DNA of 64,000 bases, taken from assembly GCF_036971445.1 (NCBI RefSeq), contig NC_091476.1, positions 27,962,001 to 28,026,000 on the forward strand, written 5' to 3'. The stretch is from Narcine bancroftii (taxonomy: Eukaryota). Below the pieces are notes generated by a model. It ran no database searches, was not told where the DNA came from, and saw nothing but the letters and a program-made list of their open reading frames with translations. Positions 27,674-63,185 of this stretch are shown here, piece after piece (the first letter of the stretch is position 1; the number at the start of each line of letters is the position of its first letter). Made by a program: the position numbers and the translations under genes.

Positions 27674-29898
27674 TTTTTTAAATTTTTTATTTTTCACACC
27701 ATAAATCACAATAGCCATGATATACACTTTTTCTTTTCCACACATTTACAGTGACTTTTTCTCCCTCCCCCCTCCCTCCTCCCAAGCCACCCCCCCACCC
27801 CCCCCCCTCTCATCCATTTTAGGTATGCAATCTAGGTTGCATTAATTCAGTCAGACAATGTTGTCATTCAACAAAAATACACCAGAAATTCTACTGAGTC
27901 CATTCTTTTCTTTTCTTCTCCTTCCATCAACTTAGGTAATGTTTGTTCCCGGTAGGTTTTCGCTATTGTATTTAATGTAAGGCTCCCATACTTGTTCGAA
28001 TATTTCAATATTATTTCTTAAACTATATGTTATTTTTTCTAATGGAATACATTTATTCATTTCTATATACCATTGTTGTATTTTCAAATTATCTTCCAAT
28101 TTCCAGGTTGACATAATACATTTTTTTTGCTACGGCTAGGGCTATCTTGACAAATCTTTTTTGTGCATCTTCCAAGTCAATTCCAAATTCTTTATTTTTT
28201 ATGTTACTTAGGAGAAAGATCTCTGGATTCTTTGGTATATTGTTTTCTGTTATTTTATTTAATATCTGATTGAGATCATCCCAAAATTTTTCTACTCTCT
28301 CACATGTCCAGATTGCATGAATTGTTGTTCCCCTTTCTTTTTTACATCGAAAACATCTATCAGATACTGTTGGGTCCCATTTATTTAACTTTTGCGGTGT
28401 AATGTATAGTCTGTGTAACCAATTATATTGTATCATACGCAGCCTCGTATTTATTGTATTTCTCATCGTTCCAGAGCATAACTTCTCCCATGTTTCCTTT
28501 TTTATCTTTATATTTAAATCTTGTTCCCATTTTTGTTTAGTTTTACCATTTGTTTCCTCATTCTCCTTTTCTTGCAGTTTAATATACATATTTGTTATAA
28601 ATCTTTTGATTAACATTGTATCTGTAATCACATATTCAAGGTTACTTCCCTCTGGTAAACTCAAATTGCTTCCTAATTTATCTTTCAAGTAGGATCTCAG
28701 TTGGTAATATGCCAGCGCTGTATCTCCAGTTATATTGTACTTATCTCTCATTTGTTCAAAGGATAAGAATCTACTTCCTGAAAAACAATTTTCTATTCTT
28801 TTAATCCCTTTTTTTTCCCATTTTCTAAAGGCAAGGTTGTCTATTGTAAAAGGGAGTAGCTTATTTTGCGTCAATATTAGGTTTGGTATTTGGTAATTTA
28901 TTTTATTTCTTTCTACATGAATCTTCTTCCATATATTGAGGAGATGGTGTAATACTGGAGAAGTTCTATGTTGTACCAATTTTTCGTCCCATTTATATAA
29001 TATGTGTTCAGGTATCTTTTCCCCTATTTTATCTAATTCTAGTCTCGTCCAGTCTGGTTTTTCCCTTGTTTGATAAAAATCTGATAGGTACCTTAATTGT
29101 GCGGCTCTATAATAATTTTTGAAGTTTGGCAATTGTAAGCCTCCTTGTTTATACCATTCTATTAATTTATCTAGTGCTATCCTCGGTTTCCCCCCTCTCC
29201 ATAAAAATCTCCTTATTATTTTCTTTAACTCTTTGAAGAATTTTTCTGTCAGTTGTATTGGCAATGCCTGAAATAAGTATAGTATCCTTGGAAAAATGTT
29301 CATTTTAATACAGTTTATCCTTCCTATCAGTGTTAGTGGTAGCTCTTTCCAATGCTCTAAATCGTCCTGTAATTTTTTCATTAGTGGATTGTAATTGAGT
29401 TTATATAATTGGCCTAGATTTTTGTTTATTTGCACACCTAGGTATCTTATTGCCTGCATTTGCCATCTGAATGGGGATTCCTCCTTAAATTTTGAGAAAT
29501 CCGCGTTATTCATAGGCATTGCTTCACTTTTATTTACGTTTATCTTGTATCCCGACACTTCTCCATATTCCTTCAATTTCTTATATAGTTCTTTTATTGA
29601 TAGTTCTGGTTCTGTTAAGTACACTATCACATCATCCGCAAACAGACTGATTTTATATTCCCTGTCTTTTATTTTTATTCCTTTTATATTATTATCTATT
29701 CTTATCGATTCTGCTAGTGGTTCTATAGCTAGCGCAAACAATAATGGTGATAGTGGGCATCCCTGCCGCGTTGACCTGCTTAAGTTAAATTGCTTTGATA
29801 CATGTCCATTTACTGTCACTTTCGCTAACGGTCCCTCATATAATGCTTTAATCCAATTAATAAACTTCTCCGGTAAACTGAATTTTTGCAATACTTTG
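27674..29898 (-). mobile_element. Young 5'-truncated L1/Tx1-clade LINE with 19-bp TSD
   Basis: 604-aa open ORF2 part with TRQGCPLSPLLF, FADD and CCHC knuckle CFRC..H..WTC; A-rich tail at 27672-27695; TSD AACAATATCTGCTCCTCTT at 27655-27673 and 29899-29917; one +1 slip in T8 (28121-28128) separates the last 60 aa (27932-28114). Confidence 0.95.
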
Positions 29899-30004
29899 AA
29901 CAATATCTGCTCCTCTTGACGTATACCTGCCTTGGTGATGCTAATTTTTAGTGATTTTGTCCCCCTCTCCCTATGCAGGTCCCTGCACGATCTCTCCGGG
30001 GTCT

Positions 30005-30487
30005 ATGAGTTCTCTGGCTTTCTCAGAACGAACAGACTGTGAAGCCGTCACCATGCTGCACTATGGGGATTCGGTGGCGAGGACCAGGGTTCCCAGCAGC
30101 TCCACGGGGCAGTTTAACGCTGGGCTGATCGCTTCTTCGTGCGGGGTCCAGAAGCAACAGTTCACCCTGCACGGCCCACAGCTGTTGGCCAGTTTCCAAC
30201 TGCAGAAACTCAACAGCCAGTACCACAGCTCGGCGCTGCAGCCAGCTCCAGTGCCCGGAGACCACCACCACCACGCCGCGGTTGCTGTCCATTCCCCAGC
30301 CCAGGCCAACCCAGGAGCGGCAGCCCAACACACGTCGGGCATCATGGACACGGACCTCATCGACGAGGACGCGCTGATGACCTTGGTGCTGGAATTGGGG
30401 TTGGATCGAGTGGACGAGCTGCCTGAACTCTGGTTGGGGCACAATGAGTTTGATTTCACCTCAGACGTGACGTCGGTCACCTGCTGA
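30005..30487 (+). CDS. CITED1: CBP/p300-interacting transactivator, CITED family (160 aa), probably CITED1
   Basis: Acceptor ctatgcag at 29977-78, first ATG at 30005; [17 protein letters not shown] and [42 protein letters not shown] conserved regions; position between HDAC8 and RPS4X as for human CITED1. Confidence 0.9.
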
Positions 30488-56499: not shown

Positions 56500-56687
56500 T
56501 GTCACCCTTCAGTGGTAAATCTAGCCAAAGCAAAATAGCACTGCCAGAGAGTAGGAAGAGGAGACGCAGCGCTCCTCCACAGGGTTCTACCACCCAGTCG
56601 AACAACCAACAGCTCGATACAGGCTTTAAATGGCCTGTTAAAGGGGTCAATGGTGATTTGCTTTAAAAAATAATGATTACAAGGTCT
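56500..56687 (+). mobile_element. 5' part of a ~700-bp repeat copy split by the ERV (continues at 62589-63185)
   Basis: taggaagaggagac...aaatggcctgttaaagg aligns with the starts of the 41540 and 51590 copies. Confidence 0.6.
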
Positions 56688-57383
56688 TGTTAGAAATTAA
56701 AGTACCTTTAAAGAAATTGCTCGAGACAAAAATTGAGAACAAAGAACATTTATTACTACAACAATGCAAAGTTGGGTGCTTCCCCTTACCCTGGGAATAC
56801 ACACACACACTGGGGCTCACCCAACTTTTATACAGTTGATTTCAGTGTAGGAATACCCTCCCCCTTACATTCTTCTGCCTCCTGCTGGAGAGGTTTGGCA
56901 TTAGGCAATCCTGCCTGCCTACGTGCAATTTCAGTATACTTGGAGAACCAGGGGGGGGTATCCTGTCGGTGTCCCTTCATGTCATTGTCCTTATTCACAC
57001 CTTCCTGATTCTCGGGGCTACAGTCTCTTGATATGCAGAGTTGACTCATTCTATCTAGGGTTGGCTAATTTCATATGTATAAATCTGTGTATGGTTAGCT
57101 AATTAGAAATGTATGACTTGGTACTTCTGTCCAGGGCTAGGAGACCCTTATCTGATCCAGACTACCTCAACTTCCTACATTCTATTGTACCTTACCATTC
57201 CTTATCTTAGTCTTATGGTCTTGTCACAAAGACTAGAAGATTCTTATGTTAATCGTGCTGACTCTGCTTTCCTGCATCCTAAGCCCCAAGCTTATCCTGT
57301 TTGAACTGGTTACAGCCATTTTACTGATGAACTTTAGTTTCTTCCATGTTCATAATTTTAGGTCAATTTTCCCATCTCTCACA
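56688..57383 (-). repeat. 3' LTR (696 bp)
   Basis: Differs from the 5' LTR at one base that I could find (T57213 vs C62418); minus-strand TATAAAA at 56826-32 and AATAAA at 56749-54. Confidence 0.97.
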
Positions 57384-57384
57384 A

Positions 57385-57400
57385 TCCTCACTTTTCTTTT
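57385..57400 (-). other. Polypurine tract
   Basis: AAAAGAAAAGTGAGGA immediately before the 3' LTR; second copy at about 57488-57503. Confidence 0.85.
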
Positions 57401-57754
57401 AGATCAGTAATACTGATCTTTCACCATGATCAGTGTTACTGATCTTTGGTTACTAGTGTCAGTGTGACTGATCCACCCCCCCCCCTCTCCTCACTTTTCT
57501 TTTAGATCAGTAACACTGATCTTTCAAGTGTAAGGTGTAGTTTTACCCAGCTGGTCAATAACCGAATTGTAATGTCTGTGTAAAGTCTTTAGGTAGGGGA
57601 GCACCATGAAGGTCAGGGGAGTGAGTCCAGCTGCTTATTAGGGTTTGGAGTATCAGGCTCCAGTTCTCAGTAAAGAGTCTAGTCCATCCCATACGTTGAA
57701 ATATTGAAGCAGTGTCTTTGAAGCACACGACCTTTGTAAGTGTTGTCCCGACGA

Positions 57755-57917
57755 AGTCTGTGAGAGGCGCTGCCTTCAGCAGCGAACGAGTAGCAGTCTA
57801 TGAGAAGCGCTGCCTTCAGCAGCGAACGAGTAGCAGTCTATGAGAAGCGCTGCCTTCAGCAGCGAACGAGTAGCAGTCTATGAGAAGCGCTGCCTTCAGC
57901 AGCGAACGAGTAGCAGT
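57755..57917. repeat. 40-bp x4 tandem repeat inside the ERV
   Basis: Unit agtctatgagaagcgctgccttcagcagcgaacgagtagc; units 2-4 identical. Confidence 0.95.
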
Positions 57918-58519
57918 AGTCAGGCGGTTCCGTTGAATTGTGGCTCGTATCTGATGTCCTCTTCAGCCCCGAACCCTAGGGCCACCGATCTCCGAAGGCT
58001 GTTTGGAGCCTGATATTAAAGTGTCAAGCAGCTCACGTTGTTGGAAACTGGTGCTCCCCTTCATGGGGTGATGAAAAGTGACCAAGCAGGGGGGGGATTG
58101 TTTCTTGTGATTTAACTGTGTGTTGCAGCTTGTCTGCTAACATTAGCATATATATCATTGAACTTGTGAGTTGCAGCCTGTCTGTGTACATTAGCATATG
58201 TATTAACTCTCTCTCTCTCTGTTACATGTACAATGCTGACTACCATTCTGTCTGTCTTTGTCCCACCATGTCCTTTGTGCTATCGCTTCAAAACTCCTGT
58301 CTTTAATACCTGTGTAGGCTAAGATACAAATTAGATGTACTCCACTAAAGCTGTTCAGTTCCCCTGGTCCGTATTGGAATCCCTTGTTAACCCATATCCC
58401 ACTATGACTATACATTAAATCTATGCCCTGTCTACATTCTAAAGGAGCACAATTGTAACCTCTGCTGCCCCTATTCCAGGGGGACTTAAAACATTAACGA
58501 ACAATATTCCAAAAAATGA

Positions 58520-58760
58520 GTAAAACAACAATGAAAGTAAAACCCATTGAAAGCAGCAATAAAATATAACAATAACTGAATAAACAACAATAAATGTAAA
58601 GCTCATTGAAAACAGCAATAAAATACACAAAAACTGAATAAACCACGATAAATGTAAAGCTCATTGAAAACAGCAATAAAATACACAAAACTGAATAAAC
58701 CACGATAAATGTAAAGCTCATTGAAAACAGCAATAAAATACACAAAACTGAATAAACCAT
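58520..58760. repeat. 57-bp x~4 tandem repeat inside the ERV
   Basis: ctgaataaac recurs at 58576, 58634, 58691 and 58748. Confidence 0.92.
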
Positions 58761-58786
58761 TAAAAAAAACGAATAAAATTGTAACA

Positions 58787-58945
58787 TTATGGCACTTTGT
58801 CATTAATTCTTTGAATGTGGGTCCAGCCTTTCTCTCTTGTTCTTACTGCGGTGTCTGTAATTAAAAGTACACAGAAGGGACCATCCCAGGCAGGTTTTAG
58901 TTGATCCTCTTGCCATGCTTTTACATATAACCAATCACTAGATTT
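58787..58945 (-). pseudogene. pol: Retroviral integrase C-terminal (GPY/F-type) remnant
   Basis: DWLYVKAWQEDQLKPAWDGPFCVLLITDTAVRTREKGWTHIQRI matches the class I IN C-terminus. Confidence 0.85.
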
Positions 58946-60408
58946 TAATAAAATGAATAACAATCTGACTTTCCTTTGTGTTAGTGTAAAAATTGTAAAA
59001 TGAAACACAAACCATATTTGCATGGGTTTTGAATATGTTAGACCTTATTAAAATGCAGTTGGAGCTGCTTGTCTGTATGGGGCACAACCCTCCAATTTGT
59101 TAGAGTGAGTACATAACAGACATTGCAGCACAAGAGCCCCTGCAAGAGAACTTGAAACATATTCAACCTTTAGTTCTGCCTTAAGTAAAATGCCTTGTGC
59201 CACAGCTCACAGGAGCTGGCCTTATTTAAAACAGTCTGTAAAACAGGCACCAAAAAAAGTTAAAAGATGTTCTTATGAAGATTGCACACACAATAATTTA
59301 AGTACAGGCTAGTTTCTATTATATTCCACTTAAAAGTTCTGCTGCATGAATCCTGGAGCTTGTGGAGTCATTATTGAATCAAGAAATATTGGTACCATGC
59401 CAATCTCATTCTAACATGCCAATTTCTCCAGTCCTTAAGTCAAGATGTACTGAATAGCATCTGGTACAAGATCTGTGAGTTCTTAATGATATTATTATTC
59501 TTATGCACCCAATTGTTCTGAACAATGCCACCAATTTAAATCATATTCCACCTATTGCAGTACTCACACACCACCATAGACCAGTTCGCAGGTTTATTTC
59601 TCCATTAAGCTGAATCCAGTTGCGCAGGATTTACCTCCGTGATTATTTACAATGTAACTTCCGCACTACCGGATTTAAATATAAACCTGATGAATGGGGG
59701 AAAGTTATCATGAATTAAATAACAGCGGCAATACAGAGAAATTGTGCTGAGGCATTAATTTCACTCCGGAGGAAAATGCACCAGAGAAATGAATGATTAA
59801 ACTTATAGGAATCCCCATAGGAATCCCCAGAGGTATCTTTATTCTCCAGAGGTGGGTGATCTTTAAACTCACGGACCTTGACTGCTGAATGTGTAGAAGA
59901 AATGTATTAAATGTGTTGATAGGGCTCCATACCTCTAACTGCAAGACAAGAGCCTGAAGCCTCAATTTCAAGTGCCACAGTGCACTTAAAGGGACATGCA
60001 CACTCCCCCTTCAACTGGCTGATCCAGCCACTTTACACATCAGATCCTTTCTTTATCTCACATACACTTAAAGTTAAGATGTATAGAACTCACCCTATTT
60101 GCGCAAACATTTCTCCCTGCAAATGTTATAACATCACTCAACTCTCAGGTACTCCCTGTGCAAAATCACATTTAAATACAATTTATTTCATAAATTGGAA
60201 TTAACTGGTAGTTAAATTCGCTAATTCTACAGTATTGAAAAACGATCATTTATGACATTTAATTTTTAGCATGAATTTTAATCAATATTGGTCAGTGACT
60301 GAAGTGGGAAGTCGTGATTTATGAAATTATCTCTGGTCTCTACTCTCCCACTCCCTGCACTTCTCCCAACATTCAGGAGCTGGCACACAGTCCCTGCCTT
60401 TTTCCATG

Positions 60409-61507
60409 TTACTCATCTACTATTACTTTAACTGCTTGCATCAAAATGTTAGCCTTTGCTTTCTGCTTATCCTCAGATGTCTGGACAAATGCTTTTTGTG
60501 TGATCTGTAGAAGCTGGGTTATTCCCTGCTCATGCCAATTTTCTGTCTTTTGTAATTTTCTCTTAATGTCTGGGGCTGAGTTGGTAACAAAACCTGTTAG
60601 TACCAATTGTTCCCCTGCTGGGGATTCTATGTCGAGACCCCCATATTGTATATATATATGGTCCCAAAAATTGGTCTAACTGTTCAGCACATCCCTGGGG
60701 ATCTTCTATCAGGGAGGTCAGTTCTTTCTTAAAGTTACACACTTCAGTACTGGTCAGGGGCACATTTACGAAACCGAGACCCTCTCCCATGGGAACTTCC
60801 CACAGTGGTCTCATCCAATTGGTTTCTGGCTTATTAGGTCTGGGTTCCTGCTCCCTGGGAAATGAATCAAAGGGTTCTGCCCTTTCTTCCTGAAGAGTCT
60901 CACGCTGTTCTGAATTAAAGTTACCTCTCTCTCCTGCCAACAGAGGTGGTAATCGAGTGCTTTGTGAGCAAGTTATCATACCACTCCTGCTCTCTTCTCT
61001 CTTCTCTAGTGGTGGGGGAGGTGGGGAAGGTGCAGAAGGGTAGGTCATAGGAGGGGAAGGAAAGATAGGAGCCGGCATAGGAGGAACATAGGGTGGAGGG
61101 AGGGAATGTAACACATCCCAACCCTGTGATTCAGGGACAAGAGGTTCCTCCTCTCTCTTATCCCTGGATTCTTTCTCATTCAAAACCAGCTGTTCAATGG
61201 ATCCCTTGAGCCAGCAGGCTGCATATTCCCTGCTCTCAACATTGTCTTTCTGGTTTTGATAGAGCCATAGGTTCAAAGCTTTACACATCCATTCATCCTC
61301 AGATCCGAATTTTGGCCAGTACACGGAGCTCCCTTTAACCGGGTATTTAACCCATTCAATACAACAATACCTGACCATTGTCAGTTTGTCTTTACCACGG
61401 GTCTTTCCTGTGCCCCACTCAGATAACATCAACCCAAGCGGGCTGTACGTAGCTATCTGGTGGTCACGTCCTGTGTCAGGACTCTCTTTACTGCCCGTTA
61501 TTCCCAT
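60409..61507 (-). pseudogene. gag: ERV gag, internally deleted and frameshifted
   Basis: MGITGS myristoylation signal, WPKFGS matrix motif, PPPY and PSAP late domains, FVNVPLTSTEV capsid start, then FVTNSAPDIKRKLQK in a shifted frame; no nucleocapsid knuckle seen. Confidence 0.88.
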
Positions 61508-61689
61508 GCTTAGAAACAAGTAAAATACCTGACCGTCGTCAGTTTCTCTTTACCACGGGTCTTTCCTGTGCCCCACTCAGATAACATCAACCCAAGCGGG
61601 CTGTACGTAGCTATCTGGTGGTCACGTCCTGTGTCAGGACTCTCATCTCTACTGCCCGCTATTCCCATGCTTAGGAACAAGTAAAATAC
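61371..61689 (-). repeat. Tandem duplication (158/161 bp) of the gag start
   Basis: Units 61371-61528 and 61529-61689 bounded by AATAC microhomology. Confidence 0.92.
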
Positions 61690-61872
61690 TCTTACCGAGT
61701 TCTGGCAGTACTGCTCTAGCGCGCGTCCTTCCGCCGTTTGTTCTCAATGCCTCTTCTCGGATATCACTCGCTTCTTCCACTGACCAGCCACCCGTCGCCC
61801 GTGAGTCCAGCTGAATCAGCCGGGGTGCACCTACTCTCGTCATCGGGGTACTCTGTCAGTGGAGGGAGTGTG

Positions 61873-61890
61873 ATCCCGGACGAGCCCCCA
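61873..61890 (-). other. Primer-binding site, tRNA-Pro
   Basis: TGGGGGCTCGTCCGGGAT, the same 18-mer as the MLV tRNA-Pro PBS, 2 nt after the 5' LTR. Confidence 0.95.
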
Positions 61891-61892
61891 TT

Positions 61893-62588
61893 TGTTAGAA
61901 ATTAAAGTACCTTTAAAGAAATTGCTCGAGACAAAAATTGAGAACAAAGAACATTTATTACTACAACAATGCAAAGTTGGGTGCTTCCCCTTACCCTGGG
62001 AATACACACACACACTGGGGCTCACCCAACTTTTATACAGTTGATTTCAGTGTAGGAATACCCTCCCCCTTACATTCTTCTGCCTCCTGCTGGAGAGGTT
62101 TGGCATTAGGCAATCCTGCCTGCCTACGTGCAATTTCAGTATACTTGGAGAACCAGGGGGGGGTATCCTGTCGGTGTCCCTTCATGTCATTGTCCTTATT
62201 CACACCTTCCTGATTCTCGGGGCTACAGTCTCTTGATATGCAGAGTTGACTCATTCTATCTAGGGTTGGCTAATTTCATATGTATAAATCTGTGTATGGT
62301 TAGCTAATTAGAAATGTATGACTTGGTACTTCTGTCCAGGGCTAGGAGACCCTTATCTGATCCAGACTACCTCAACTTCCTACATTCTATTGTACCTTAC
62401 CATTCCTTATCTTAGTCCTATGGTCTTGTCACAAAGACTAGAAGATTCTTATGTTAATCGTGCTGACTCTGCTTTCCTGCATCCTAAGCCCCAAGCTTAT
62501 CCTGTTTGAACTGGTTACAGCCATTTTACTGATGAACTTTAGTTTCTTCCATGTTCATAATTTTAGGTCAATTTTCCCATCTCTCACA
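61893..62588 (-). repeat. 5' LTR (696 bp)
   Basis: Direct repeat of 56688-57383 at offset 5205. Confidence 0.97.
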
Positions 62589-63185
62589 GTCTGGACCGAG
62601 ATGGTGTTGCCTGTGGGGTTGCATACTCCGGGGGAGCAGAGGACTGGGATACGGCACCAGAAAATGGGGAGAACACCCCTGTTTGAGAGGGAGAAGCTGA
62701 GGAGATGACCCTATGGGATGGGGACCACACCAAATGGCAGTGATGAGTTCTCCGGCTGAAGAACTCACACAGGTGGTGGGCTGTTGGCAACTCAAGGTGA
62801 GGAATCTGTGCAGGCTGAGGACTGCTGATAACTGCGGTCATGGGACTCGAACGAGCTGTGGACTGCTGGAAAATGGCTTGAAGGGGTTTTGGAACAAGGA
62901 TACGCGTGGGTGCTGAAGGATTCCTGATTATGTCAGATGGTTGGATCTGGAGTTCTGGTTGCTGATGGTTTGGATTGAAGTCTGTGTGGCTGCTGAAGTA
63001 TTGGAAGAGAATCCACAGAAACTCAGTTGCTTGGGGGGGGGGGGGGGTGGAGGGAGAAGGGAGGAAGGGGGGGAGGCCTCTTTCTCTTTTGCATCTCTTT
63101 CTCTGACTATAAAGGGTGCCAGGCAATTTGTGCAGATAGTGAATCGGTAAGTTGATTTTCATGCAATCAAATTCAATCTTGAGAT
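62589..63185 (+). mobile_element. 3' part of the ~700-bp repeat copy split by the ERV
   Basis: caccagaaaatggggaga...gagaagctgaggagatgaccc...ggatctggagtt; ends ttcaatcttga. Confidence 0.65.

Follow-up and report, generated by a model that had tools for sequence, protein, structure and literature searches.

How can a provirus whose two long terminal repeats (LTRs) are almost identical be devoid of a working pol gene? This question is raised by a 5.9-kb element on the minus strand of a 64,000-nucleotide stretch of the genome of the ray Narcine bancroftii (assembly GCF_036971445.1, contig NC_091476.1, positions 27,962,001 to 28,026,000; hereafter the window), where it runs from 62588 to 56688. 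An earlier note, made from the letters of the window, had taken it for a freshly integrated but coding-dead retrovirus and had postulated an active pair of helper and satellite endogenous retroviruses (ERVs). The helper/satellite idea is supported by our analysis, with a putative helper that lacks env. With a probability that we put at roughly 85%, the element is a non-autonomous class I ERV that an env-less sister family with gag and pol copies in trans, and represents the most recent form of a far older defective lineage. This reading builds on the observation of shared lesions, independent integrations, a coding relative of the same age and a layered mosaic structure.

The marks of a complete insertion were all present, as the earlier note had claimed. 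The LTRs (5' LTR, 61893-62588; 3' LTR, 56688-57383; both minus strand) are 696 nt each, begin and end with TG...CA, and differ by a single mismatch, at 57213. The duplication GTCT flanks the element on both sides (56684-56687 and 62589-62592), a primer-binding site (61873-61890, minus strand) follows the 5' LTR after a 2-nt spacer, and a polypurine tract (57384-57400, minus strand) adjoins the 3' LTR, with a 39-nt repeat of it at 57488-57526. The primer site is presumably of the tRNA-Pro type, as in murine leukemia virus (MLV). The interior is severely reduced: a Pfam search of its six frames, with X at stops, returned just a Gag_p30 fragment and MLVIN_C. Compared with a gag-pol copy, 332 nt of gag are deleted at 60648/60649, and the remaining 3' piece of the capsid region (60331-60648, minus strand) is out of frame, so that the reported deletion and frameshift were confirmed. 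Compared with the sister family, about 3.5 kb are missing, from the end of gag through protease (PR), reverse transcriptase (RT), RNase H and most of integrase (IN), up to the integrase C-terminal tail (MLVIN_C, 58787-58957, minus strand), which is 94-95% identical to that of the young pol-bearing family; a foreign insert occupies 58958-60330. The description as coding-dead holds for pol, of which the IN tail is left; in gag, a stub of 314 codons starting with MG is still open (60563-61507, minus strand). The IN tail is not the only remnant beyond the insert, because 58062-58601 (minus strand) is a decayed env-derived region, 91-94% identical to that of the young pol-bearing family. We assign the element to the class I (gamma/epsilon-like) ERVs on account of Gag_p30, MLVIN_C, an MLV-like RT, and gag, stop codon and pol lying in one frame. 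The nearest named protein to the Gag stub is labeled Narcine bancroftii (97%), in line with the cartilaginous-fish host that had been proposed, and is followed by ERV Gags of other rays, sharks, and birds.

The same lesions recur throughout the genome, as predicted. With the LTR and the insert as queries, all of the best 40 matches scored were about 100% identical (out of 2,815 and 1,428 candidates, respectively). An exact 24-mer across one junction of the young insert, found in 19 of 20 young copies and in none of 7 old copies tested, had 877 occurrences, marking at least 877 copies with this interior; at the gag deletion, an exact 31-mer containing a TA run was counted 132 times. The reversed controls gave 0 in both cases. 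Among the 20 best-matching loci, 16 carried two LTRs with 0-2 mismatches, a 4-bp duplication of their own and the same interior, the other four being single, nested, or truncated within the stretch taken. A less biased sample, formed by every fifth of the first 100 listed matches (n = 20, all on contig C1), yielded nine loci with both LTRs and a clean duplication, in which 14 mismatches were counted over 6,245 nt (0.22%); its inserts were 92-100% identical to that of the window where measurable. Identical disabling lesions at many loci with differing target duplications indicate independent insertions, and contigs assembled from independent runs showed 0-5 differences to the insert. One further run, under a second organism label (X4, B), contained the insert and gag at high depth, with 0-1 differences in its contigs, and may be a close relative or a mislabeled sample; the runs X10 (C) and X11 (D), with low and patchy depth over both regions, were not used.

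A candidate helper was reached by a genome search with the integrase-tail family. At this locus, a gag frame of 579 codons is followed by TAG and by a pol frame of 1,182 codons with PR (a weak match), RT, RNase H, and IN; the Pol is MLV-like, with an E value of 2e-157 to an MLV-type RT. The expected gag-pol relative with related LTR and primer site thus exists: its family has the primer site and the tandem repeats of the 3' untranslated region (40-bp units at 57755-57914 of the window, minus strand) in common with the defective element, along with an LTR that is 96% identical. An exact 24-mer from the helper RT, present in 20 of 20 helper copies and in 0 of 8 older relatives, occurred 82 times (reversed control, 0), giving a ratio of defective to helper copies of about 11:1 (877 versus 82 by 24-mer counts). 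LTR pairs differed by 0-4 mismatches in 18 of 20 helper-type loci (0.22% when pooled), target duplications matched in 17, and gag and pol were both open and in register, with all domains, in three. No env frame was found in any of the 20, which retain remnants only; in both families the region after pol is an env remnant, as indicated by similarity to a related family's open reading frame (ORF), which matches a Pfam-positive Env in its C-terminal part. The putative helper is, in our classification, a class I ERV without env and coeval with the defective wave. The competent class I retrovirus that had been proposed as mobilizer is therefore retained as to class and open gag-pol but not as to env, the lack of which makes the family better read as an intracellular ERV-retrotransposon than as a competent virus. 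In a repeated block, defective and pol-bearing copies lie head to head or nested (L026 and L043, with identical matches on contigs C8, C109, C117, C119, and C193); this block is probably a segmental duplication or a set of assembly duplicates.

The defective core has a longer history than its present ends. Starting from a diverged contig derived from reads, we found seven older loci via one 30-nt motif. All seven carry the insert at the same gag junction, and their inserts are 86-95% identical, by segment, to that of the window. Compared with the young copies, they have different LTRs, retain a larger part of env, and contain about 155 and 212 additional nucleotides; five of them do not have the 332-nt gag deletion. 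Five have LTR pairs that could be aligned, diverged by about 4% in substitutions, and two have target duplications. In U3, the leader, the start of gag, the IN tail, and the 3' region, identity of the window element to the helper copy L060 amounts to 94-99% (90-99% for the same segments of a second helper copy, L047). Within the 5' LTR, identity to L060 is 99% on the U3 side and 92% on the R/U5 side; in the Gag stub, the 5' part is 97% identical to the young pol-bearing family, and the middle is only 84% identical to L060 versus 93% to an older pol-bearing relative, L033. The insert, in the same comparison by segments, matches old defective copies only. Phylogenetic trees agree with this pattern: for the gag start (21 rows, support 100/98) and for the env remnant (15 rows, 6 being left out for short cover; support 100/100), the young copies of both families, defective and helper, fall into a single clade, whereas such a clade is rejected for mid-gag (approximately unbiased test, p-AU 3e-49). 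The young copies are mosaics, in which today's helper accounts for the ends, an earlier relative for mid-gag, and an old lineage for the core. Exchange with the helper family appears to have continued recently, as two copies of the even sample (L112 and L102) join an insert of 99-100% identity to a helper gag of 96-100%, L097 is partly recombinant in the same manner, and, of 13 copies in which the R/U5 region could be measured, 7 have the helper type and 4 that of the window. The claim that the decay predates the insertion in the window is borne out by the lesions shared among many loci; however, the defective lineage did not stem from decay of today's helper, since recombination has joined helper ends to a core of far greater age.

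The insert itself had been described as about 1.4 kb of unrecognizable AT-rich sequence. Its GC content of 37% is low relative to the sister pol (44.6%) but close to that of the host flank (39.5%), and a part of it can be recognized. Positions 59326-59565, on the plus strand and thus antisense to the element, encode a decayed RT N-terminus (E 2e-7 to Moloney MLV RT). This piece is 37% identical to the helper RT, compared with 55%, 51%, and 45% for proteins of a smooth-hound (a shark), a skate, and a devil ray, and its best DNA match is an old ERV locus of the same genome (73% over 195 nt). In an RT tree of 80 residues and 28 rows, built from sequences gathered in this analysis, it clusters with this old lineage of elasmobranch ERVs; its union with the helper family in one clade is rejected (p-AU 9e-6). 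The center of the element appears, then, to have been swapped for an old retroelement piece, with about 240 of 1,370 nt assigned to RT. For the other 1.1 kb or so, no identity was found with Pfam (three frames of the insert halves and six frames of an older copy's insert), the matches being weak and irrelevant. The Pfam searches of the interior, of the insert halves and of the older copy's insert also failed to detect the RT piece, and a homolog search among longer proteins gave 0 of 3,341 candidates. A genome search with RVT_1 was not used, as its top 150 matches looked dominated by RTs of long interspersed nuclear elements (LINEs). That the 1.4 kb are the element's own decayed pol was ruled out by the lack of any DNA match to helper pol, the wrong strand, and the other clade; env or a captured host gene was unsupported by the comparisons.

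We estimated ages from the epaulette shark mutation rate of 7e-10 per site per generation (PMC10587355). At this borrowed rate, one mismatch in 696 nt corresponds to about 1.0 million generations (0.5-5 million over the rate interval), the young waves to about 1.6 million and the old copies to about 29 million. Because the rate is borrowed, and errors of reverse transcription and assembly inflate ages, only the ratio of roughly twenty is robust; the defective core is roughly twenty times older than the current wave. "Freshly integrated" and "active" are therefore not established, as at this rate "fresh" may stand for about a million generations.

From these results, the following course of events emerges. 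Long ago, the pol center of an ERV of this clan was replaced by about 1.7 kb of foreign DNA, within which lay a piece of an unrelated old ERV in inverted orientation; this form then spread. In today's copies, the old core is retained, the young pol-bearing family has provided the LTRs, the leader, the start of gag, the IN tail, and the 3' region, and mid-gag stems from an earlier relative. In keeping with established retroviral biology, defective RNA with an intact primer site, packaging region, polypurine tract, and integrase ends may be co-packaged in helper particles, where helper Pol would reverse-transcribe and integrate it. Template switching in mixed particles would renew the cis signals and could hand the core from helper wave to helper wave.

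Several points weigh against this reading. The case is known here from sequence alone, not from a transcript, a particle, or a new insertion. The seven older copies are a biased set, having been found through one 30-nt motif, and unrooted trees of the insert place the young inserts as sister to the older set rather than nested within it. In the even sample, 11 of 20 copies had no clean two-LTR structure inside the stretch taken. Some helper matches are identical copies on small contigs, and duplicated assembly may therefore have entered both counts. No donor locus was found for the insert as a whole: four older ERV loci, after extension to about 16 kb, matched at best the RT piece. Finally, the mosaics could alternatively come from DNA-level conversion between proviruses.

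This last alternative, with mobilization in trans by the same helper but mosaics made by ectopic gene conversion or unequal recombination between integrated proviruses instead of co-packaging, could draw on many templates (about 900 near-identical loci) and on nested and head-to-head elements (L017, L026, and L043), and the stage of the template switch is not readable from the sequences. We consider it unlikely, since target duplications are clean and LTR mismatches number 0-2 in both recombinants, L102 and L112, and L012-L015 have helper-type R/U5 in both LTRs, as expected if the switch precedes or accompanies reverse transcription. Movement in the manner of VL30, as infectious pseudotypes of an unrelated env-bearing family with a 502-amino-acid Gag, is still less probable. 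Such a young family does exist (L028, L030, L031, and L032), with LTR pairs 99-100% identical, the same Pro-type primer site in three of four loci and open env frames of 545-569 codons in three of four; its pol is shortened or interrupted in all four, it shares with the element only two short stretches at 70-76% identity and no LTR similarity, and recombinants were seen with the env-less family but not with this one. The possibility that each copy integrated intact and decayed in place, or that LTR identity is an artefact of assembly or conversion, is a general one to which a few exact duplicates on small contigs might lend credit; because many loci whose target duplications differ share these deletions and the insert, and contigs from independent runs agree with the insert, we consider it refuted.

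It is also doubtful that the Gag stub is functional, whether by working in cis, as the fusion protein of IAP 1-delta-1 does, or by serving as a dominant-negative capsid; if it were, the element would not be coding-dead. The stub is open in most top-scoring copies, and in 15 long-frame copies the variant codons (14 synonymous per 182 sites, 26 non-synonymous per 664 sites) give a ratio of about 0.5; yet this ratio, calculated without correction for transition bias and from copies chosen for open frames, is weak evidence of constraint. Among the evenly sampled copies, the stub is uninterrupted in 6 of 20 and split in at least 7, and identical frameshifts recur at separate loci (three at 60827 and two at 61278, in 8 examined), so broken versions were still copied. 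The stub looks dispensable. As for the co-packaging of a defective partner with an env-less helper, a bolder version of it is possible, and we offer it tentatively: a single defective core may have survived for tens of millions of years in a ray lineage by taking up, one after another, LTRs and packaging regions from every new wave of helpers, may still be transposing, and may have kept the antisense RT scrap or the flanking insert for some advantage in packaging, RNA stability, or silencing of competing ERVs. If true, the core would be a lasting "parasite of the parasite", surviving the families that it drains.

Other features of the locus complete the picture. The gag start is duplicated in tandem in the window (158 bp, 61366-61697, minus strand), a duplication that is absent from most copies and creates an upstream 52-amino-acid ORF (61510-61668, minus strand). 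The env remnant contains a tandem repeat of 57-59 bp (58504-58759), which ranges from about 4 to about 19 units depending on the copy (L022, 1434-2570). Next to the element, a dispersed repeat at 62631-62882 recurs at 51763-51996 with 68% identity. About 26 kb from the insertion, an ORF for a CITED-family transcriptional co-activator (29945-30484, plus strand; Pfam CITED, E 3e-34) adjoins the end of a LINE-like open frame of 637 codons with RVT_1 and zf-RVT (28092-30002, minus strand), and no tRNA genes were found in the window. Genome searches returned 3,521 candidates for Gag_p30 and 4,883 for MLVIN_C, indicating that class I ERVs are abundant in this genome; by comparison, 100-700 insertions are given for elephant shark, coelacanth, and lamprey (PMC4977317), and PMC6894440 provides further context.

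Most of the closest known parallels come from mammals. MusD/ETn, KoRV/recKoRV, and the bovine C/D elements share a design in which the center is swapped for an old retroelement piece while the gag and pol or env ends are kept (PMC10924933), and the window element fits this design. In mouse ETn/MusD, as in the ray pair, an env-less helper is accompanied by an excess of a non-coding partner with a swapped center and kept gag and pol ends, ETn outnumbering MusD by about 240 to 100 (PMC6466679, PMC10924933); ETn/MusD, however, are class II elements of a mammal, whereas the ray pair is class I, with a ratio of about 11:1 and a core traced to much older proviruses with other LTRs. The ERVK[2-1-LTR] C/D family of cattle resembles it in its 15% competent and 85% defective copies, a center made of an old retroelement piece, C-D recombinants, and a "parasite-of-parasite" model, but the cattle helper keeps env and its mobility has been measured (PMC10924933). 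The putative ray helper is env-less and known only from its sequence, and the ray core appears to have outlived earlier helpers. The recKoRVs (KoRV x PhER) are likewise gamma-like proviruses whose center was replaced by an older degraded retroelement and that spread (PMC6112702), although they represent many independent, very recent events, while the ray element points to one old, persisting event with an antisense RT piece. IAP 1-delta-1 is an internally deleted partner dependent on helper proteins (PMC6466679), but its fusion protein acts in cis, whereas the ray Gag stub appears dispensable. VL30 is a class I non-autonomous element co-packaged with MLV (PMC6466679). In the ray, most cis regions are common to the element and its putative helper; VL30 and its own helper, by contrast, are hardly related. 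In soybean, Du et al. 2010 reportedly described LTR swapping between autonomous and non-autonomous elements, the latter taking the LTRs of their partners; these are plant retrotransposons, and the ray case is a class I ERV.

The center-swap design and LTR swapping between partners are thus already known. The cartilaginous-fish host, the antisense RT scrap, and one core that appears to persist across helper waves, with the same insert in seven older defective proviruses, are new here. We found no report of such a helper/defective pair in sharks or rays, and no paper combining "Narcine" and "endogenous retrovirus", in a search outside which most subscription papers lay. For a group with a very low point-mutation rate (PMC10587355), the case indicates that structural variation has had a large and recent source. 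As the design was described from three mammalian cases (PMC10924933), its presence in a cartilaginous fish suggests that ERV evolution generally leads to it. In the cattle model, defective elements displace competent ones until the family dies (PMC10924933); in the ray, an old core with layered capture from successive relatives would allow the fate of defective elements after the death of their helper to be studied in one genome, with about 900 copies.

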